Below are positions 1-10,414 of a DNA stretch of 64,000 bases, piece after piece. The DNA is from Escherichia coli O127:H6 str. E2348/69. Lineage in GTDB: Bacteria; Pseudomonadota; Gammaproteobacteria; Enterobacterales; Enterobacteriaceae. The DNA is taken from the NCBI RefSeq assembly GCF_000026545.1, contig NC_011601.1; one strand, given 5' to 3'. Position 1 is the stretch's first letter. Each line of letters starts with the position of its first letter. The notes under the pieces were generated by a model that was not told the DNA's origin, ran no database searches, and saw only the letters and a program-made list of their open reading frames with translations. Made by a program: the position numbers and the translations under genes.

Positions 1-497
1 TTATTGCCACTGCCAATACGCGCGATCGCGGCGTCAATGAAATGAGTGCCGCGCTAAAGCGTCGCTTCGATTTTGAAACTGTCTTTCCGATTATGGATTT
101 CGCCCAGGAGCTGGAGCTTGTCGCCAGTGCTTCGGCGCGTTTGCTGGCCCATAGCGGCATTCCGCATAAAGTGCCTGACGCGGTACTGGAGTTACTGGTC
201 CGCACCTTTCGCGATCTGCGTGCCAACGGCGAAAAGAAAACGTCAATGGATACACTAACAGCGATTATGTCCACCGCTGAAGCCGTGAACGTGGCCCACT
301 CGGTGGGCGTCCGCGCCTGGTTTTTAGCGAATCGAGCAGGTGAGCCAGCCGATCTGGTGGACTGTATTGCCGGAACCATCGTCAAAGATAACGAAGAAGA
401 TCGCGCGCGCCTGCGCCGTTACTTCGAACAACGTGTTGCTACACATAAAGAAGCTCACTGGCAGGCTTATTATCAAGCTCGCCACCGCCTGCCGTGA
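1..497 (+). CDS. yehL: MoxR-family AAA+ ATPase, C-terminal part (5' end lies outside the window; stop at 495-497)
   Basis: Open frame from the window edge to TGA 495-497; recognised as the C-terminus of the MoxR-like ATPase that heads the yehLMPQ operon; the next gene starts 10 nt downstream. Confidence 0.8.
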   Translation, partial: IATANTRDRGVNEMSAALKRRFDFETVFPIMDFAQELELVASASARLLAHSGIPHKVPDAVLELLVRTFRDLRANGEKKTSMDTLTAIMSTAEAVNVAHSVGVRAWFLANRAGEPADLVDCIAGTIVKDNEEDRARLRRYFEQRVATHKEAHWQAYYQARHRLP

Positions 498-507
498 GGA
501 AAGATGT

Positions 508-2787
508 ATGAGCGAGCCGTTAATTGTCGGCATCCGGCATCATAGCCCGGCCTGCGCCCGGCTGGTGAAATCGTTAATCGAAAGCCAGCGGCCACGATAC
601 GTATTGATTGAAGGCCCGGCTGATTTTAATGACCGGGTAGACGAACTGTTTTTAGCCCACCAGCTTCCGGTAGCTATTTACAGTTATTGCCAGTATCAGG
701 ACGGTGCGGCCCCCGGGCGTGGTGCCTGGACGCCATTTGCTGAATTTTCGCCGGAGTGGCAGGCGCTACAAGCCGCACGTCGTATTCAGGCACAAACTTA
801 CTTCATCGATTTGCCTTGCTGGGCGCAGAGTGAAGAAGAAGACGAATCACCCGATACGCAAGATGACAGCCAGACCTTACTGCTGCGTGCCACCTGCATG
901 GATAACAGCGATACCCTGTGGGATCACTTATTCGAAGATGAAAGCCAGCAAACTGCATTACCCTCTACGCTGGCGCACTATTTTGCCCAACTGCGGGGCG
1001 ATTCCCCCGGAGATGCTCTCAATCGTCAGCGCGAAGCCTTTATGGCTCGCTGGATTACATGGGCGATGCAGCAAAACAATGGCGACGTGTTAGTCGTCTG
1101 CGGCGGCTGGCACGCTCCTGCACTGGCAAAAATGTGGCGCGAATGCCCGCAGGAAATTAACAAGCCAGAATTGCCCTCGCTGGCAGATGCCGTTACAGGT
1201 TGTTATCTCACACCCTACAGTGAAAAGCGCCTTGATGTGCTGGCAGGATACCTTTCCGGAATGCCTGCCCCGGTCTGGCAAAACTGGTGCTGGCAGTGTG
1301 GCTTACAGCAGGCAGGTGAACAACTGCTGAAAACGGTTCTTACCCGTTTGCGCCAGCACAAATTGCCCGCTTCTACCGCTGATATGGCTGCCGCTCATCT
1401 GCATGCGATGGCACTGGCACAGTTGCGCGGCCATACACTACCTCTACGCACTGACTGGCTGGATGCCATAGCTGGTTCGCTGATTAAAGAAGCCTTGAAC
1501 GCGCCGTTGCCGTGGAGCTACCGCGGGGTCATTAATCCCGATACCGATCCGATTCTGGTAACGTTGATAGACACATTAGCGGGTGACGGATTCGGTAAAC
1601 TTTCCCCTTCTACGCCACAACCGCCTCTGCCAAAAGATGTCACCTGCGAACTGGAACGTACCGGAATCTCTCTTCCGGCGGAGCTTACCTTAAATCGCTT
1701 TACCCCCGATGGACTGGCGCAAAGTCAGGTGTTACATCGGTTGGCAATACTGGAGATCCCAGGGGTTGTGCGCCAGCAGGGAAGTACACTGTCACTTGCA
1801 GGCAACGGTGAAGAATGCTGGAAATTAACCCGCCCGCTTAGCCAGCATGCTGCATTGATTGAGGCCGCCTGCTTTGGCGCCACACTCCAGGAAGCCGCAC
1901 GCCATAAATTAGAAGCCGATATGCTGGACGCGGGTGGAATCGGCTGTATCACCACATGTCTTAGCCAGGCAGCGTTAGCGGGTCTGGCGTCTTTCAGTCA
2001 ACAATTACTGGAACAACTCACATTATTAATCGCCCAGGAAAATCAATTCGCCGAAATGGGCCAGGCGCTGGAAGTGCTATATGCCTTATGGCGGTTGGAT
2101 GAAATCAGCGGTATGCAAGGCGCGCAGATATTACAAACGACGTTATGCGCGGCTATCGATCGCACACTCTGGCTATGTGAATCCAACGGCAGACCGGATG
2201 AAAAGGAGTTTCACGCTCACCTGCATAGCTGGCAGGCGCTTTGCCATATCCTGCGCGATCTACATAGCGGCGTTAATTTACCCGGCGTTTCGCTTTCTGC
2301 GGCAGTAGCCTTACTGGAGCGCCGCAGTCAGGCGATTCATGCCCCGGCGCTGGATCGCGGCGCGACTCTTGGCGCACTGATGCGTCTGGAACATCCCAAC
2401 GCCAGTGCCGAAGCGGCGCTGACGATGCTGGCGCAGTTATCCCCGGCACAATCCGGCGAGGCGCTGCACGGTTTGCTGGCGCTGGCCCGCCATCAACTGG
2501 CCTGTCAGCCGGTATTTATCGCCGGTTTCAGCAGTCATTTAAATCAACTGAGTGATGCCGATTTTATCAATGCCCTGCCCGATTTACGCGCGGCGATGGC
2601 CTGGCTACCACCACGAGAACGCGGGACGCTGGCGCATCAGGTGCTTGAGCATTATCAACTGGCGCAACTTCCCGTTTCGGCACTGCAAATGCCGTTGCAT
2701 TGTCCACCACAAGCCATTGCACATCATCAACAACTCGAACAGCAGGCACTGGCATCGCTGCAATACTGGGGAGTTTTCCATGTCTGA
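508..2787 (+). CDS. yehM: Uncharacterized 759-aa protein, second gene of the yehLMPQ operon
   Basis: ATG 508 preceded by GAGGA at 496-500; the track ORF 340-2787 is in the same frame and I take its upstream part as non-coding read-through; stop overlaps the yehP start. Confidence 0.85.
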   Translation: MSEPLIVGIRHHSPACARLVKSLIESQRPRYVLIEGPADFNDRVDELFLAHQLPVAIYSYCQYQDGAAPGRGAWTPFAEFSPEWQALQAARRIQAQTYFIDLPCWAQSEEEDESPDTQDDSQTLLLRATCMDNSDTLWDHLFEDESQQTALPSTLAHYFAQLRGDSPGDALNRQREAFMARWITWAMQQNNGDVLVVCGGWHAPALAKMWRECPQEINKPELPSLADAVTGCYLTPYSEKRLDVLAGYLSGMPAPVWQNWCWQCGLQQAGEQLLKTVLTRLRQHKLPASTADMAAAHLHAMALAQLRGHTLPLRTDWLDAIAGSLIKEALNAPLPWSYRGVINPDTDPILVTLIDTLAGDGFGKLSPSTPQPPLPKDVTCELERTGISLPAELTLNRFTPDGLAQSQVLHRLAILEIPGVVRQQGSTLSLAGNGEECWKLTRPLSQHAALIEAACFGATLQEAARHKLEADMLDAGGIGCITTCLSQAALAGLASFSQQLLEQLTLLIAQENQFAEMGQALEVLYALWRLDEISGMQGAQILQTTLCAAIDRTLWLCESNGRPDEKEFHAHLHSWQALCHILRDLHSGVNLPGVSLSAAVALLERRSQAIHAPALDRGATLGALMRLEHPNASAEAALTMLAQLSPAQSGEALHGLLALARHQLACQPVFIAGFSSHLNQLSDADFINALPDLRAAMAWLPPRERGTLAHQVLEHYQLAQLPVSALQMPLHCPPQAIAHHQQLEQQALASLQYWGVFHV

Positions 2788-3916
2788 ACTGAACGATCTT
2801 CTGACCACCCGTGAGCTACAACGCTGGCGATTAATTCTTGGCGAAGCGGCAGAAACGACGCTTTGTGGGCTGGATGACAACGCCCGGCAGATAGACCACG
2901 CGCTGGAGTGGCTGTATGGGCGCGATCCTGAACGGCTCCAGCGTGGTGAACGCTCTGGTGGATTAGGTGGCTCAAATCTCACCACCCCTGAGTGGATCAA
3001 CAGTATTCACACGCTGTTTCCGCAACGGGTGATCGAGCGGCTGGAAAGCGATGCCGTGCTGCGCTACGGCATTGAAGATGTGGTGACGAATCTCGACGTG
3101 CTGGAACGTATGCAGCCTTCTGAAAGCCTGCTACGCGCCGTTTTGCACACTAAACATCTGATGAATCCCGAAGTACTGGCTGCCGCCCGCCGGATAGTGC
3201 ACCAGGTTGTTGAAGAGATTATGGCGCGACTGGCAAAGGAAGTTCGTCAGGCTTTTTCTGGAGTACGCGATCGCCGTCGCCGCTCATTTATTCCACTGGC
3301 GCGAAACTTTGATTTCAAAAGTACTCTGCGCGCCAACCTGCAACACTGGCACCCGCAACACGGCAAGTTGTATATCGAATCCCCCCGCTTTAACAGCCGC
3401 ATTAAACGCCATAGCGAACAATGGCAACTGGTCCTACTGGTTGATCAAAGCGGATCAATGGTGGACTCGGTGATCCACTCCGCAGTGATGGCGGCCTGTT
3501 TATGGCAGTTACCCGGTATTCGTACCCATCTGGTGGCGTTTGACACCAGCGTCGTCGATCTCACGGCAGACGTTGTCGATCCGGTAGAATTATTAATGAA
3601 AGTGCAATTAGGCGGCGGGACCAATATCGCCAGTGCCGTGGAGTATGGTCGGCAACTTATTGAACAACCAGCGAAAAGCGTCATTATTCTCGTGAGCGAT
3701 TTTTATGAAGGTGGGTCATCATCATTGCTGACGCATCAGGTGAAAAAGTGTGTCCAGAGCGGCATCAAAGTGCTGGGGCTGGCAGCGCTCGACAGCACCG
3801 CAACGCCTTGCTATGACCGCGATATGGCCCAGGCGCTGGTTAATGTCGGCGCACAAATAGCCGCAATGACACCGGGCGAGCTGGCTTCCTGGCTTGCGGA
3901 GAATCTTCAGTCATGA
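2780..3916 (+). CDS. yehP: von Willebrand factor A (VWA) domain protein with a MIDAS motif
   Basis: ATG 2780 overlaps the yehM stop (ATGTCTGA); 378 aa; DQSGS motif at residues 222-226 (nt 3443-3457) sits after a hydrophobic strand (LVLLV), as expected for a MIDAS site. Confidence 0.85.
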   Translation: MSELNDLLTTRELQRWRLILGEAAETTLCGLDDNARQIDHALEWLYGRDPERLQRGERSGGLGGSNLTTPEWINSIHTLFPQRVIERLESDAVLRYGIEDVVTNLDVLERMQPSESLLRAVLHTKHLMNPEVLAAARRIVHQVVEEIMARLAKEVRQAFSGVRDRRRRSFIPLARNFDFKSTLRANLQHWHPQHGKLYIESPRFNSRIKRHSEQWQLVLLVDQSGSMVDSVIHSAVMAACLWQLPGIRTHLVAFDTSVVDLTADVVDPVELLMKVQLGGGTNIASAVEYGRQLIEQPAKSVIILVSDFYEGGSSSLLTHQVKKCVQSGIKVLGLAALDSTATPCYDRDMAQALVNVGAQIAAMTPGELASWLAENLQS

Positions 3917-5916
3917 ATTCACGACGTCCGGAATTATTAGAACTGACACCACAGGCACTGACGGCGTTAAGCAATGCCGGTTTTGTTAAGCGCAGCCTTA
4001 AGGAACTGGAAAATGGCAACGTCCCGGAAATCAGTCATGAGAACGGCGCTTTAATCGCCACCTTCAGTGACGGTGTCCGTACCCAGCTGGCGAACGACCA
4101 GGCACTGAAAGAGGCTCAGTGCACCTGCGGGGCCAGCGGCATGTGCCGTCATCGCGTGATGCTGGTGTTAAGTTATCAACGACTTTGTGCCACCGCCCAG
4201 CCTACGGAAAAAAAAGAAGAAGAGTGGGATCCGGCAATCTGGCTGAAAGAACTGGCTACCCTGCCCGATGCCACCCGCAAACGCGCGCAGGCGCTGGTCG
4301 CTAAAGGCATCACCATTGAGTTGTTCTGTGCGCCTGGCGAAATTCCCTCTGCCCGATTACCGATGAGCGATGTGCGTTTTTATTCCCGCAGCAGCATTCG
4401 CTTCGCACGCTGTGATTGCATTGAAGGCACACTTTGCGAACATGTCGCACTGGCTGTGCAAGCCTTCGTCGAGGCCAAAACTCAGCAAGCGGAATTTACT
4501 CATTTAATCTGGCAGATGCGCAGTGAACACGCCACATCATCTGATGATCCGTTTGCCAGCGAAGAAGGCAAAACGTGTCGTCAATATGTTCAGCAATTAA
4601 GCCAGGCATTATGGCTGGGCGGGATAAGTCAACCGCCAATCCATTACGAGGCCGCTTTCAGTCGCGCGCAGCAAGCGGCAGAACGCTGCAACTGGCGATG
4701 GGTGAGTGAATCGCTACGGCAATTGCGCGCCAGTGTTGATGCCTTCCACGCCCGTGCCAGCCACTACCATGCCGGAGAATGCTTACGTCAGCTTGCGGCA
4801 TTAAACAGTCGATTAAATTGCGCACAAAAGATGGCGCGGCGCGACAGTGTTGGTGAAGTTCCTCCTGTGCCCTGGCGCACGGTCGTTGGCGCTGACATTG
4901 CCGGAGAAGCAAAACTTGATCATCTGCGGCTGGTGTCTTTAGGTATGCGTTGCTGGCAGGATATTGAGCAGTATGGTTTACGCATCTGGTTTACCGATCC
5001 CGACACAGGAAGTATTTTGCATCTTTCGCGTAGTTGGCAGAGAAGCGAACAGGAAAACTCACCGGCAGCGACGCGTCGGCTGTTTAGTTTTCAGGCTGGC
5101 GCACTGGCAGGTGGGCAAATTGTTTCACAAGCTGCAAAACGCAGTGCCGATGGCGAGCTGCTGTTAGCGACCCGTAACCGCTTGAGTAGTGTTGTTCCAC
5201 TGTCGCCAGACGCCTGGCAAATGTTGAGCGCGCCGTTGCGCCAGCCGGGCATTGTGGCTTTGCGGGAATATTTACGCCAGCGTCCCCCCGCCTGCATACG
5301 ACCACTCAACCAGGTCGATAACTTATTTATTCTGCCGGTAGCGGAGTGTATTTCGCTCGGTTGGGATAGCAGCCGCCAGACGCTGGATGCGCAGGTAATC
5401 AGCGGCGAAGGGGAAGATAATGTGCTGACGTTATCCCTTCCGGCATCTGCCTGTTCTCCTTTTGCCGTTGAACGCATGGCGGCGCTTTTGCAACAAACAG
5501 ACGACCCCGTGAGTCTGGTTTCTGGCTTTGTCAGTTTTGTAGAGGGGCAATTGACACTGGAACCACGGGTGATGATGACAAAAACCCGCGCCTGGGCGCT
5601 GGACGCAGAAACTGCGCCTGTGGCACCGCTACCTTCTGCCAGCGTTCTGCCTGTGCCGCCTACCGCTCATCAGTTGCTGATGCGCTGCCAGGCGTTACTT
5701 ATTCAACTGCTCCATAACGGCTGGCGCTATCAGGAACAGAGTGCTATTGGTGAGGCAGAGTTGCTGGCGAATGACCTCACCGCGGTGGGTTTTTATCGGC
5801 TGGCACATGTGTTGGGACAATTTCGTAATACAGAAAGCGAGGCACGGGTAGAAGCAATGAATAACGGTGTTTTACTTTGCGAACAATTATTCCCCATGCT
5901 TCAGCAACAAGGATGA
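3913..5916 (+). CDS. yehQ: SWIM zinc-finger domain protein
   Basis: ATG 3913 overlaps the yehP stop (ATGA); two CxCx5CxH motifs at nt 4120-4152 and 4411-4443; 667 aa if this start is used, but the start is uncertain. Confidence 0.75.
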   Translation: MNSRRPELLELTPQALTALSNAGFVKRSLKELENGNVPEISHENGALIATFSDGVRTQLANDQALKEAQCTCGASGMCRHRVMLVLSYQRLCATAQPTEKKEEEWDPAIWLKELATLPDATRKRAQALVAKGITIELFCAPGEIPSARLPMSDVRFYSRSSIRFARCDCIEGTLCEHVALAVQAFVEAKTQQAEFTHLIWQMRSEHATSSDDPFASEEGKTCRQYVQQLSQALWLGGISQPPIHYEAAFSRAQQAAERCNWRWVSESLRQLRASVDAFHARASHYHAGECLRQLAALNSRLNCAQKMARRDSVGEVPPVPWRTVVGADIAGEAKLDHLRLVSLGMRCWQDIEQYGLRIWFTDPDTGSILHLSRSWQRSEQENSPAATRRLFSFQAGALAGGQIVSQAAKRSADGELLLATRNRLSSVVPLSPDAWQMLSAPLRQPGIVALREYLRQRPPACIRPLNQVDNLFILPVAECISLGWDSSRQTLDAQVISGEGEDNVLTLSLPASACSPFAVERMAALLQQTDDPVSLVSGFVSFVEGQLTLEPRVMMTKTRAWALDAETAPVAPLPSASVLPVPPTAHQLLMRCQALLIQLLHNGWRYQEQSAIGEAELLANDLTAVGFYRLAHVLGQFRNTESEARVEAMNNGVLLCEQLFPMLQQQG

Positions 5917-6040
5917 AATAGTGCTTTTTATTAAGAGTTCTACTCCTGTTCCGGACTGCTCACGCCACAGTATTAGGCATATCCTATATAGCCCCTGGTG
6001 AGAGTCACCAGTTCCTTGATTAAATAAAATGGAGTTTTAC

Positions 6041-6502
6041 ATGAAGGCTTTCAATAAGCTGTTTTCCCTTGTTGTTGCATCTGTTCTGGTTTTCTCTCTT
6101 GCTGGCTGCGGTGACAAAGAAGAATCAAAGAAATTCAGCGCCAATCTGAACGGCACTGAAATTGCCATTACCTATGTCTACAAAGGTGACAAGGTGCTTA
6201 AGCAATCTTCTGAAACCAAAATTCAATTTGCCTCCATTGGTGCAACCACCAAAGAAGATGCCGCCAGGACACTTGAGCCGTTAAGCGCTAAATACAAAAA
6301 CATCGCGGGTGTTGAAGAAAAATTAACCTATACCGATACCTACGCGCAGGAAAACGTGACTATTGATATGGAAAAAGTGGATTTTAACGCCCTGCAGGGT
6401 ATTTCAGGAATCAACGTTTCTGCTGAAGATGCTAAAAAAGGTATCACTATGGCGCAAATGGAACTGGTGATGAAAGCCGCTGGTTTTAAAGAAGTGAAAT
6501 AA
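6041..6502 (+). CDS. yehR: Lipoprotein (signal peptide with lipobox LAGC)
   Basis: ATG 6041 with GGAG 6 nt upstream; N-terminus MKAFNKLFSLVVASVLVFSLAGC is a typical lipoprotein signal; 153 aa. Confidence 0.85.
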   Translation: MKAFNKLFSLVVASVLVFSLAGCGDKEESKKFSANLNGTEIAITYVYKGDKVLKQSSETKIQFASIGATTKEDAARTLEPLSAKYKNIAGVEEKLTYTDTYAQENVTIDMEKVDFNALQGISGINVSAEDAKKGITMAQMELVMKAAGFKEVK

Positions 6503-6508
6503 TCTGTC

Positions 6509-6533
6509 GGCGGCCATGTTTCGCATGGCCGCC
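6509..6533. terminator. Perfect 10-bp inverted repeat (GGCGGCCATG / CATGGCCGCC, 5-nt loop) between convergent yehR and yehS
   Basis: Read directly from the sequence; no clear U-tract on either strand, so termination is inferred from position only. Confidence 0.45.
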
Positions 6534-6542
6534 ATACCCGTC

Positions 6543-7013
6543 TTAGCTTTTCTTCACATGCTGGCGCGCTGCCAGTCCACGCAGAAAATAACGTAAAAAT
6601 TGATCGCCGCATTCGCGGAAGTTTTTATGATCCGGTGCACGCATCATCGCCGTAATTTCCGGCATCGAAACGCGGAACTGCTGTTCGGTGAGGATTGCCA
6701 GAATGTCATCGGTTTTAAGCGAAAACGCGATGCGTAATTTTTTCAGCACGATGTTGTTATTAATGCGACGTTCCGGCTCCAGTGCCAGAGCAGACTCATC
6801 CTTGCCGCGTTTTTCATAAATCAGGCCATTGAGGAATGAAGACAAAACAATGTCCGGACAACGCTGAAAACCCTCTTCGTCTTCTTTACGTAGCCAGACG
6901 GCGATCTGTTCCGCGGTGGCTTCGACATTACCCAGCGCCAGAATACGCACCAGGTCATTATTATTGGCTTTCAAAATGTAGCGCACGCTGCGCAGAATAT
7001 CGTTACTTAGCAT
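6543..7013 (-). CDS. yehS: Uncharacterized protein, immediately downstream of btsR
   Basis: ORF on the minus strand; start placed at the Met giving MLSNDILRSV (156 aa); the track ORF extends 19 codons further upstream. Confidence 0.75.
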   Translation of the reverse strand: MLSNDILRSVRYILKANNNDLVRILALGNVEATAEQIAVWLRKEDEEGFQRCPDIVLSSFLNGLIYEKRGKDESALALEPERRINNNIVLKKLRIAFSLKTDDILAILTEQQFRVSMPEITAMMRAPDHKNFRECGDQFLRYFLRGLAARQHVKKS

Positions 7014-7059
7014 GAGGCCTTCAGGTGTTGATGAGGCAAAAAGCCATTTTAGCAGTCTT

Positions 7060-7779
7060 TTACAGGCCAATCGCCTCTTTTAAGCTTTTCAGATAACGGC
7101 GGCTGACCGGCACGGTTAAGCCATTACGCAAAATCAACTCGGCCTGGCCGTTATCTTCCAGACGGATCTCCTGTAAATGCGCGAGGTTAACCAGATACTG
7201 ACGATGGCAGCGCAGTAGTGGTGTACGACTTTCCAGGGTACGTAATGTCAGTTCGGTAAAGCCCTCTTTCCCTTCGTGACTGGTAACGTAGACACCGCTC
7301 ATCCGACTGCTGACAAATGCCACATCTTTCATTTGCAGCAAATAAATCCGACTATGCCCCGTACAAGGGATAAATTTCAGCGCCTGTTGATTTTCCGGTA
7401 ACAACGAAACATCCTGCTTGCTGCGCTCCTGACGCAATCGCGCCAGCGTTTTCTCCAGTCGCGCTTCATCAATTGGCTTCAGCAGATAATCAAAGGCATG
7501 TTCTTCAAAGGCTTTAATGGCGTATTCGTCAAACGCGGTGAGAAAAACAATATACGGGCGATGTTCCGGGTCGAGCATCCCCACCATTTCCAGACCACTG
7601 ATGCGCGGCATCTGGATATCGAGAAACAGCACATCCGGGCGCAGTTTATGCACCGCGCCGATCCCTTCTACGGCGTTTGAACACTCTCCAACGATTTCAA
7701 TATCGCTCTGCTCCTGCAAAAATACGCGCAGGTTCTCCCGTGCTAACGGTTCATCATCGACAATTAAGACTTTAATCAT
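7060..7779 (-). CDS. btsR: LytTR-family response regulator (receiver domain plus LytTR DNA-binding domain)
   Basis: N-terminus [17 protein letters not shown] is a receiver domain; 239 aa; start overlaps the btsS stop (ATGA). Confidence 0.9.
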
Positions 7780-9461
7780 GCCTCGTCCCTCCATGGTAGT
7801 CGTAACGTTATTCGGGTGTAACTATCAGGCTCACAGGCGACGCTTATCCCATAGTCATCGCCAAACCGTTCACGTAAACGCTTATCCACCAGATTCATCC
7901 CCAGCCCACTGGCATTGGTTACCGGTTGATACAAACCGGCATTGTCTTCGATCTCCAGCATCAAATGTTGCCCCTCACGTCGGGCGCTGATTGCCACTCG
8001 CCCTGTATCCAGCAGTTGTGATGTCCCATGTTTAATGGCGTTTTCCACTATCGGTTGCAGGGTAAACGCGGGCAATTGCTGCTGGGATAATTCTTGCGGA
8101 ATAGCAATGTTGACCTGCAACCGCGACTGGAAGCGCGCCTTTTCAATTTGCAGATAAGCGTTCACATGTTCAATTTCGTCGGCGAGAGTAACAAACTCCG
8201 AAGGCCGCTTTAAGTTTTTGCGGAAAAAAGTAGAAAGATACTGCACCAGCTGGCTGGCCTGTTCGCTGTCGCGGCGGATCACCGCTTTAATGGTGTTAAG
8301 CGCATTAAACAAAAAATGGGGATTCACCTGGGCGTGAAGCAGTTTGATCTCTGACTGGGTGAGCATCGCTTTTTGCCGCTCATATTGCCCGGCGAGGATC
8401 TGCGCCGAAAGCAGTTGCGCAATCCCCTCGCCCAGCGTGCGGTTGATTGAACTGAATAAACGGTTTTTGGCCTCATACAATTTGATGGTACCCATCACTC
8501 GCTGATTTTCACCACGCAACGGAATGACCAGCGTCGACCCCAGTTTGCATTGCGGATGCAAAGAGCAACGGTAAGGCACTTCGTTGCCATCAGCGTAGAC
8601 CACTTCACCGGTTTCAATCGCTTTTAAGGTATAAGTCGAAGAAATCGGTTTGCCGGGTAAATGGTGGTCGTCACCAATTCCGGTAAAGGCCAGCAATTTC
8701 TCTCGATCGGTAATCGCGACTGCACCAATATCCAGCTCCTGATACAGCACCTGTGCCACTTTCATGCTGTTCACTTCGTTAAACCCCTGGCGCAAAATGC
8801 CTTCCGTCGAGGCCGCCACTTTCAGCGCAGTGGCAGAAAAAGCCGAAGTGTATTTTTCAAACATCGCGCGTTTATCGAGCAATATACGCATAAACAGTGC
8901 CGCGCCGACGGTATTGGTGACCATCATTGGCGCAGCAATATTACTCACCAGACGCACCGCATCTTCATAAGGTCGGGCGATCGCCAGGATAATCAACATT
9001 TGCACCATTTCAGCGACGAACGTGACGGCACCGGCGGTAATGGGGTTAAAGACTTTATCAGTGCGCCCGCGACGGATCAGGATGCTGTGTACCATGCCAC
9101 CGAGCAATCCTTCAACGATGGTCGAGATCATGCAACTTAGCGCGGTCATGCCCCCCATCGAATATCGATGTAACCCGCCGGTCAGACCAACCAGCCCACC
9201 GACGACCGGACCGCCGAGTAAGCCGCCCATTACCGCACCTATCGCACGGGTATTGGCAATAGAATCGTCAATGTGCAACCCAAACCAGGTGCCCATGATG
9301 CAGAAGATGGAAAAGACGATGTAGCAGAGAAATTTATGCGGCAGACGAACCGTGACCTGCATTAACGGTATGAATAATGGCGTTTTACTCATTAACCACG
9401 CAATGACTAAAAAAACGCACATCTGCTGAAGCAGCAGCAACACCAGATTAAAATCGTACAT
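7776..9461 (-). CDS. btsS: LytS-type membrane sensor histidine kinase
   Basis: Multi-pass hydrophobic N-terminus followed by a histidine-kinase core; 561 aa from the Met giving [11 protein letters not shown]. Confidence 0.9.
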
Positions 9462-9682
9462 ACCCGCAAACCACACTTCCCTTTAAAACGCGTAACATAC
9501 ATTGCTTGCGTTTAACTTTCTTTGAACTCTTGCAGAAAAATGAGAATTCGTGAGTACGATCACTCAAAATCGCCTGGCAAAAATAAAATCACCCTATAGA
9601 TGCACAAAAAACAGGCAAAACTACCTGGTTCGCAAAACTGCGTCTAAAGTTAAACCGGGACCTCGCGAGCAAGGGTGAGACG

Positions 9683-10414
9683 ATGGCGCTTTACACAATT
9701 GGTGAAGTGGCGTTGCTTTGTGATATTAACCCTGTCACGTTACGCGCGTGGCAGAGGCGTTACGGATTGCTGAAACCGCAGCGGACAGACGGCGGTCATC
9801 GGCTGTTCAACGATGCCGATATTGACCGGATCCGCGAGATCAAACGCTGGATCGACAACGGTGTGCAGGTCAGCAAAGTAAAAATGCTGCTCAGTAATGA
9901 AAATGTTGATGTGCAGAACGGCTGGCGCGATCAGCAAGAAACATTACTGACTTACCTGCAAAGCGGCAATCTGCATAGCCTGCGAACGTGGATCAAAGAG
10001 CGCGGTCAGGATTACCCCGCCCAGACACTCACCACACATCTGTTTATTCCTCTGCGCCGACGGCTTCAGTGCCAACAACCGACTCTCCAGACGCTGCTGG
10101 CGATCCTCGACGGCGTACTGATCAACTACATCTCTATTTGCCTGGCTTCGGCGCGCAAAAAACAGGGTAAAGATGCACTGGTGGTTGGCTGGAATATTCA
10201 GGATACCACTCGTCTGTGGCTGGAGGGCTGGATTGCCAGTCAACAAGGATGGCGCATTGATGTCCTCGCCCACTCGCTCAATCAACTACGCCCTGAACTG
10301 TTCGAAGGCCGTACATTGCTGGTGTGGTGCGGTGATAATCGAACCTCCGCCCAACAACAGCAACTCACCCGTTGGCAGGAACAAGGCCATGATATTTTCC
10401 CACTCGGCATTTAA
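9683..10414 (+). CDS. mlrA: MerR-family transcriptional regulator
   Basis: N-terminal MerR-type helix-turn-helix (YTIGEVALLCDINPVTLRAWQRRYGLL); 243 aa. Confidence 0.9.
   Translation: MALYTIGEVALLCDINPVTLRAWQRRYGLLKPQRTDGGHRLFNDADIDRIREIKRWIDNGVQVSKVKMLLSNENVDVQNGWRDQQETLLTYLQSGNLHSLRTWIKERGQDYPAQTLTTHLFIPLRRRLQCQQPTLQTLLAILDGVLINYISICLASARKKQGKDALVVGWNIQDTTRLWLEGWIASQQGWRIDVLAHSLNQLRPELFEGRTLLVWCGDNRTSAQQQQLTRWQEQGHDIFPLGI

Follow-up and report, generated by a model that had tools for sequence, protein, structure and literature searches.

MoxR AAA+ ATPases form seven subfamilies; YehL is the type member of one of them, and members of the others are chaperone-like maturation factors that work with VWA partners (PMC3893208). 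In the described pairs, RavA-ViaA, CbbQ-CbbO, NorQ-NorD and CoxD-CoxE, the genes for the MoxR ATPase and the VWA protein lie in one cluster, and the yeh genes of Escherichia coli share this arrangement. Here we analysed a window of 64,000 nucleotides (the whole stretch of DNA under study) from contig NC_011601.1 of E. coli O127:H6 str. E2348/69, to which it is 100% identical, and focused on yehQ, a member of the gene cluster yehI-yehL-yehM-yehP-yehQ. YehQ carries two CxCx5CxH motifs, which connect it to a second group of described proteins, those with a SWIM domain (PF04434). The SWIM signature is CxCxnCxH, with n usually 6-16 (PMC5727457), and two solved representatives, ZSWIM8 (PDB 9rwz) and Shu2 (PDB 5xyn/6dex), show what the domain does in its host protein: a dimeric superdomain of ZSWIM8 has the Zn-SWIM domain as its "central organizer" (bioRxiv 10.64898/2026.01.05.697729), and complex assembly depends on the Zn site of Shu2 (PMC5727457). 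The name "SWIM zinc finger family protein" is already attached to YehQ in RefSeq and UniRef, and the label is thus not new. The literature that we searched contained no functional study of yehQ, DUF5682, DUF4132, the YehL subfamily or the yeh operon, and the one paper with a yehQ knockout merely lists the strain. What we add is the demonstration of a duplicate SWIM module, the full domain architecture of YehQ, and the description of a mobile five-gene cassette in which the engine is highly conserved and two peripheral subunits evolve fast. The gene and its N-terminal elements are located as follows.

3913-5916, + strand: yehQ, SWIM zinc finger family protein, 667 aa (open reading frame list; 100% match to WP_012578945.1)
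3943-4197, + strand: SWIM module 1, residues ~11-95 (helices, three-stranded sheet, short strand, loop, long helix in the model)
4120-4152, + strand: site 1 ligands C70-x-C72-x5-C78-x-H80 (CTCGASGMCRH), read in the DNA as TGC ACC TGC ... TGC CGT CAT
4225-4488, + strand: SWIM module 2, residues ~105-192, internal duplicate of module 1 (hhalign; same secondary-structure order; Pfam SWIM at 161-184)
4411-4443, + strand: site 2 ligands C167-x-C169-x5-C175-x-H177 (CDCIEGTLCEH), read in the DNA as TGT GAT TGC ... TGC GAA CAT

The accession WP_012578945.1 is the yehQ product of E. coli O127:H6 E2348/69 itself, with 100% identity. Re-reading the DNA placed the start of codon 70 at 4120 and that of codon 167 at 4411, and both motifs, their residue numbers and their coordinates proved to be exactly as an earlier note on this DNA, made from the sequence alone, had given them. 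YehQ contains 18 cysteines and 14 histidines, and a composition-matched shuffle of the protein is expected to contain 2.7e-4 CxCx5CxH motifs; among 20,000 such shuffles a single motif appeared in 0.02% and two motifs in none. Since so few motifs are expected per shuffled protein, chance does not explain the presence of the two motifs in YehQ.

To follow the ligands among homologues, we scanned 1.84 billion representative proteins, which yielded 832 relatives of YehQ (565 at E <= 1e-10), and sampled 120 full-length relatives with 25-48% identity. All four ligands of site 1 (C70, C72, C78 and H80) were present in 119 of the 120 homologues, the remaining one being gapped at this position, so that the site is complete in 119/119 sequences that cover it and is invariant in the full-length alignment. 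At site 2, C167, C169, C175 and H177 were each kept in 107-111 of 120 homologues, and the pattern was all-or-none: 107 homologues retained 4/4 ligands, 13 retained 0-1, and not a single one had 2-3. Such a pattern is expected if a single metal ion is bound by the four residues together. Across the same 120 sequences, the twelve other cysteines of YehQ all lack conservation, and the spacer between the two ligand pairs was five residues long in 210 of the 227 motif instances found in the homologue set. One 857-residue homologue (P0031) apparently carries three tandem copies of SWIM module 1. Another sequence (P0061), which at first sight represents a YehP-YehQ fusion, was set aside, the junction reading like a frameshifted translation and the fusion being a likely frameshift artefact.

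The earlier note had found that both segments fit the SWIM pattern. With the PF04434 profile, residues 56-88, which contain site 1, gave a marginal match (E 7.6e-4, 19.4 bits), and site 2 stayed below threshold, so that a search with this profile would not by itself decide on site 2. When the same profile was run on 97 YehQ relatives, E <= 1e-3 was reached in 7 and E <= 0.1 in 65, and precomputed Pfam tables for three distant YehQ homologues recorded no SWIM match. Because so few of the relatives reach E <= 1e-3, the PF04434 model evidently detects the YehQ family poorly. To relate the two modules to each other, a comparison of profiles was required. In hhalign, the profiles of module 1 and module 2 aligned over 82 columns with a probability of 95.9% and an E value of 5.3e-9, pairing residues 11-95 with residues 110-192 and bringing all four ligands into register, and the two modules showed weak similarity by direct BLAST (E 0.002 in a single comparison, 19% identity). 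Since the module profiles align with the ligands in register, site 2 is a duplicate of site 1, and by this comparison the second, profile-sub-threshold motif is a true homologous SWIM module. The N-terminal ~190 residues of YehQ thus consist of two ~85-residue modules that arose by ancient internal duplication.

Structure prediction agrees with this picture. AlphaFold2 models of full-length YehQ (mean predicted local distance difference test, pLDDT, 92.8; predicted template modelling score, pTM, 0.91) and of the N-terminal 208 residues (pLDDT 94.0, pTM 0.87) place the ligands identically in both modules, with a pLDDT of ~95 at the sites. The first cysteine is the last residue of the short strand and the second lies in the following loop, whereas the third precedes the long helix by one residue and the histidine is located in the first turn of this helix. 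The model therefore contains a predicted SWIM fold, in which strands bearing CxC are combined with a helix that opens with CxH, as in solved SWIM domains. In a model-based structural comparison of the N-terminal region, the best solved match was the SWIM protein ZSWIM8, and Shu2 was also matched. A sequence-profile search of the PDB with the full-length (A1) and the N-terminal (A3) profiles gave chance-level hits only, the top ones being a designed helical binder (E 0.15) and Rpb3 (E ~1). Taken together, profile-profile homology, ligand conservation, predicted topology and the match to ZSWIM8 and Shu2 support the assignment of both segments to SWIM, and the YehQ sites are very probably SWIM sites. 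They share with the known domains the CxCxnCxH signature and, in the model, the placement of CxC on a strand-loop and of CxH at a helix N-terminus. They differ from them in that YehQ has two tandem homologous modules instead of one, in that each module adds an N-terminal helical hairpin and a three-stranded sheet, and in their context, which is a bacterial MoxR/VWA cluster in the case of YehQ and a cullin ligase, a Rad51-paralogue complex, a transposase or an SNF2 ATPase in the others.

This context was considered next, and the genes upstream of yehQ in the window are listed here.

1-497, + strand: 3' end of yehL, MoxR-family AAA+ ATPase of the YehL subfamily (open reading frame 42-497; annotation; PMC3893208), cut by the window start
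508-2787, + strand: yehM, DUF5682 protein (RefSeq; PF18934 on homologues; fused to a VWA domain in the metagenomic locus L004)
2780-3916, + strand: yehP, VWA protein of the VWA_CoxE type, partner of the MoxR ATPase (RefSeq; Pfam VWA_CoxE/VWA_2 on homologues; ~68% identity across phyla)

An ATGA at 3913-3916 joins the yehP stop codon to the yehQ start codon, yehM and yehP overlap by 8 nt, and yehL and yehM are separated by 10 nt. The claim that yehQ is co-translated with the MoxR/VWA genes is sound in view of these two overlaps. To see how far the arrangement extends, we scanned one genome per species with 18 closer sequences as query and obtained 80 loci, a set biased towards Proteobacteria. 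All five genes were present in 72 of these species-level loci, and in ~70 of the 80 they were colinear in the order yehI-L-M-P-Q on one strand, the others being mostly truncated contigs. The loci span Gamma-, Beta-, Delta- and Alphaproteobacteria as well as Actinobacteria, and include Enterobacterales, Xanthomonadales and Rhizobiaceae, the betaproteobacterial genera Massilia, Variovorax, Burkholderia and Acidovorax, the deltaproteobacterial Trichlorobacter and Smac51, and the actinobacterial Mycolicibacterium, Mycobacterium and Propionibacteriaceae. No flanking gene family was common to the loci beyond related genera, and for this reason we regard the five genes as a self-contained cassette. 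Judged by gene content, YehQ is an obligatory part of this cassette in at least two bacterial phyla. The combination of SWIM modules with a MoxR/VWA pair, which had been called unusual in the earlier note, is instead a conserved rule across the YehL subfamily of MoxR systems. Compared with the described MoxR/VWA pairs, the yeh cluster has yehM between yehL and yehP, a YehP of the VWA_CoxE type, and three extra obligatory partners, namely the DUF4132/WGR protein YehI, the DUF5682 protein YehM and the SWIM/OB protein YehQ, and it lacks a conserved neighbouring client gene.

The clusters of three distant homologues hold the same families (DUF4132, AAA_5 MoxR ATPase, DUF5682, VWA_CoxE and a YehQ homologue) in varying order and completeness. 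One contig (L003) begins just ahead of the DUF5682 gene, and neither the DUF4132 gene nor an annotated AAA_5 gene is seen there; in the metagenomic locus L004, the AAA_5 gene precedes the DUF4132 gene, and DUF5682 and VWA are fused into one protein of 1107 aa (L004:5678-9001). The DUF4132 protein of the distant clusters carries WGR in one case and ankyrin repeats in another, and for E. coli YehI Pfam records DUF4132 alone. The YehI homologue at L002:489-4286 is listed among those with an extra WGR or ankyrin-type domain, a gene for a DNA ligase (adenylation/OB) with WGR lies directly upstream of the L004 cluster (L004:1-401), and a gene for a molybdoenzyme of the xanthine-dehydrogenase/CO-dehydrogenase type, which is not conserved elsewhere, lies directly downstream of the YehQ homologue in L003 (L003:6292-10116). 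This last neighbour is noteworthy in view of the VWA_CoxE match and of the old name "molybdate metabolism regulator" of MolR, a paralogue of YehI. The five proteins are conserved to very different degrees: relative to E. coli, the proteins of 62 distant loci had a median identity of 75% for YehL, 68% for YehP, 46% for YehM, 34% for YehQ and 33% for YehI, and the Mycolicibacterium copy of YehL is still 71% identical. This unevenness suggests that a constrained engine has spread horizontally together with peripheral subunits that evolve fast. Homologues of YehQ are also encoded on plasmids or megaplasmids in Iodobacter, Agrobacterium/Allorhizobium vitis, Sinorhizobium and Streptomyces. A few records labelled as E. 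coli "plasmid" also contain near-identical copies of E. coli yehQ; several of these records are chromosome-sized and possibly mislabelled.

Of 5426 complete E. coli genomes, 5361 contain the cluster. When E2348/69 is compared with a K-12-lineage strain, identity amounts to 93.5% for yehQ and to 95.3-96.1% for yehL, yehM and yehP, against 97.5-98.8% for the flanking genes yehR, btsSR and mlrA (window positions 6029-10414, set against the operon at 1-5916); yehQ is therefore the most divergent gene of the operon. In the K-12 lineage (J53, L087:8406-10406), codon 615 of yehQ is a premature stop, 3 nt of the gene are deleted, and RefSeq annotates it as a pseudogene ("internal stop"). Most of the C-terminal helical bundle described below would be lost through this stop, which makes K-12 ill-suited as a background for functional work. 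The yeh operon in K-12 is silenced by H-NS; expression of yehL and yehM rises in hns/stpA mutants, and H-NS binding near yehL/yehM is classed as "intergenic" in a figure of the same study (PMC3686432).

The remainder of YehQ, downstream of the SWIM modules, is divided as follows.

4561-4848, + strand: four-helix bundle, predicted, residues 217-312 (AlphaFold2 model)
4900-5202, + strand: OB-like beta-barrel 1, predicted, residues ~330-430, with the order beta1-3, helix, beta4-5 (AlphaFold2 model, fold comparison)
5323-5598, + strand: OB-like beta-barrel 2, predicted, residues ~471-562, with the same strand/helix order (as barrel 1)
5662-5910, + strand: C-terminal helical bundle, residues 584-666, shortened in the K-12 lineage by the stop at codon 615 (DSSP; K-12-lineage comparison)

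On the basis of the model, we are confident of a predicted architecture in which two SWIM modules are followed by a helical bundle, two OB-like barrels and a second helical bundle. When residues 330-562 were compared with tandem OB-fold proteins that bind single-stranded DNA, scores were modest, with 6-12% identity and template modelling (TM) scores <= 0.5, and the likeness of the modelled barrels to RPA70 DBD-A/B, Teb1 AB, POT1 and HIN-200 would be one at the level of the fold only. The computed isoelectric point (pI) is 9.2 for barrel 1 and 4.2 for barrel 2, and the acidic second barrel sets YehQ apart from these DNA binders. Nucleic-acid binding by the OB-like barrels could thus be put forward as a hypothesis only.

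How might these parts work together? We lean, with modest confidence, towards a reading in which YehQ has structural zinc sites, docks onto the partners encoded in its operon and uses its C-terminal part to offer the MoxR/VWA engine a client or ligand. In each module, the strand-loop with CxC and the first turn of the long helix with CxH would be placed to form one Cys3His site, and each of these sites most likely binds structural zinc, as far as the model indicates. The two sites would stiffen two small modules, through which YehQ is most likely docked into a machine of several subunits. We infer the docking role by analogy, because in both solved SWIM proteins the zinc site holds a hub of protein-protein assembly. 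The machine would comprise YehI (DUF4132, with WGR in some homologues), YehL (MoxR AAA+), YehM (DUF5682), YehP (VWA) and YehQ, and the helical bundle, the two OB-like barrels and the second helical bundle would represent the part that recognises a ligand or client and is acted on by the ATPase/VWA engine. Our results also agree with the suggestion of the earlier note that YehQ may serve the MoxR/VWA system as a subunit that recognises proteins or nucleic acids.

Several observations weigh against this reading. The PF04434 match at site 2 (residues 161-184) is sub-threshold, with E 0.24 and 11.4 bits, and the YehQ spacer of five residues is slightly under the usual range of 6-16 (PMC5727457). 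Site 2 is wholly lost in ~10% of homologues and hence appears dispensable in some lineages. The docking role, finally, is drawn from two proteins that are both eukaryotic.

Among the alternatives, one places the ligand at the N-terminus: the SWIM modules would bind nucleic acid and YehQ would be a DNA- or RNA-recognition subunit. The first proposals of nucleic-acid binding by SWIM concerned MuDR-type transposases and SNF2-associated proteins. In the account of Makarova et al. (2002) that is given in PMC5727457, both DNA- and protein-binding roles are predicted for SWIM. The presence of WGR in YehI homologues, the ligase-WGR gene adjoining one locus, and the resemblance of the remainder of YehQ to tandem-OB binders of single-stranded DNA all fit a function of this kind. 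However, both solved SWIM proteins use the domain for protein assembly, Shu1-Shu2 does not bind DNA (PMC5727457), and the YehQ modules are near neutral, with pI values of 7.7 and 7.9, instead of basic, and we consider this alternative unlikely.

A wider reading concerns the cassette as a whole, which could be an undescribed, self-contained and horizontally mobile machine, for example a nucleic-acid-sensing conflict/defence or repair system, in which YehQ, with its tandem SWIM modules and tandem OB-like barrels, and YehI, a DUF4132 protein with WGR in some homologues, would be two rapidly diverging sensors or specificity subunits that direct an extremely conserved MoxR/VWA engine. The identities between E. 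coli and distant phyla (YehL ~75% and YehP ~68% versus YehQ ~34% and YehI ~33%) are in line with such a division of labour, as are the lack of a conserved neighbour, the plasmid copies in several phyla, the silencing of the operon by H-NS in K-12 and its greater divergence within E. coli than that of its flanks. On the other hand, the operon is a fixed core locus in 5361/5426 E. coli genomes, and a search of the known anti-phage defence systems in PADLOC-DB v2 returned no match for YehL, YehM, YehP or YehQ, which likewise counts against this reading; we hold it to be improbable. Scans against NCBIfam and PADLOC also contained no family model for YehQ and gave only far-sub-threshold matches for YehP.

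A further possibility is that the Cys3His sites hold or pass on metal during cofactor maturation of the CoxD/CoxE or NorQ/NorD kind, driven by the MoxR/VWA pair. YehP homologues match Pfam VWA_CoxE, MoxR-VWA pairs are known to act in the maturation of metalloenzymes (PMC3893208), and a molybdoenzyme gene lies directly downstream in one distant locus (L003). Unlike in the cox, nor and cbb loci, no client enzyme is conserved beside the cluster, and this weakens the proposal; moreover, ligand placement and fold in the model match the structural zinc sites of SWIM, and complete loss of site 2 is possible. We regard metal handling as very unlikely. That the motifs are fortuitous or vestigial, without metal or role, would account for the weak Pfam scores and the missing Pfam record in three distant homologues, but is hardly credible and, as far as sequence comparison reaches, is contradicted by conservation, given that chance yields 2.7e-4 motifs per protein, that site 1 is always kept and site 2 is all-or-none as other cysteines drift, that register is kept between the duplicated modules, and that the model matches the SWIM fold.

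For experiments, the analysis offers two Cys3His sites that can be mutated, domain limits to guide expression constructs, and a defined set of partners. A long-standing group of "y-genes" that is nearly universal in E. coli could in this way turn tractable.

Some minor observations concern annotation and the surroundings of the operon. In the 90%-identity protein cluster of YehQ, some partial proteins bear the name "Tn3 family transposase", and one is called "dipeptidase"; such entries are probably clustering or annotation artefacts from short contigs. PHROGs contains perfect full-length "phage" matches for YehQ (phrog_29006), YehP (31592), YehM (30700/33984) and YehI (20839). A phage origin of the yeh genes was considered and rejected: the VT1-Sakai record AP000400.1 (919-2919) includes the host flank with yehP, yehQ and yehV, and the matches are likely a database artefact. 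Upstream of the window in E2348/69, yehK, a small gene (L086:10605-10921), is frameshifted, with an intergenic gap of ~700 bp ahead of yehL, and a second DUF4132 gene, likewise annotated as frameshifted, precedes yehI (L086:3112-6908). We take this to be the position expected for molR of K-12.

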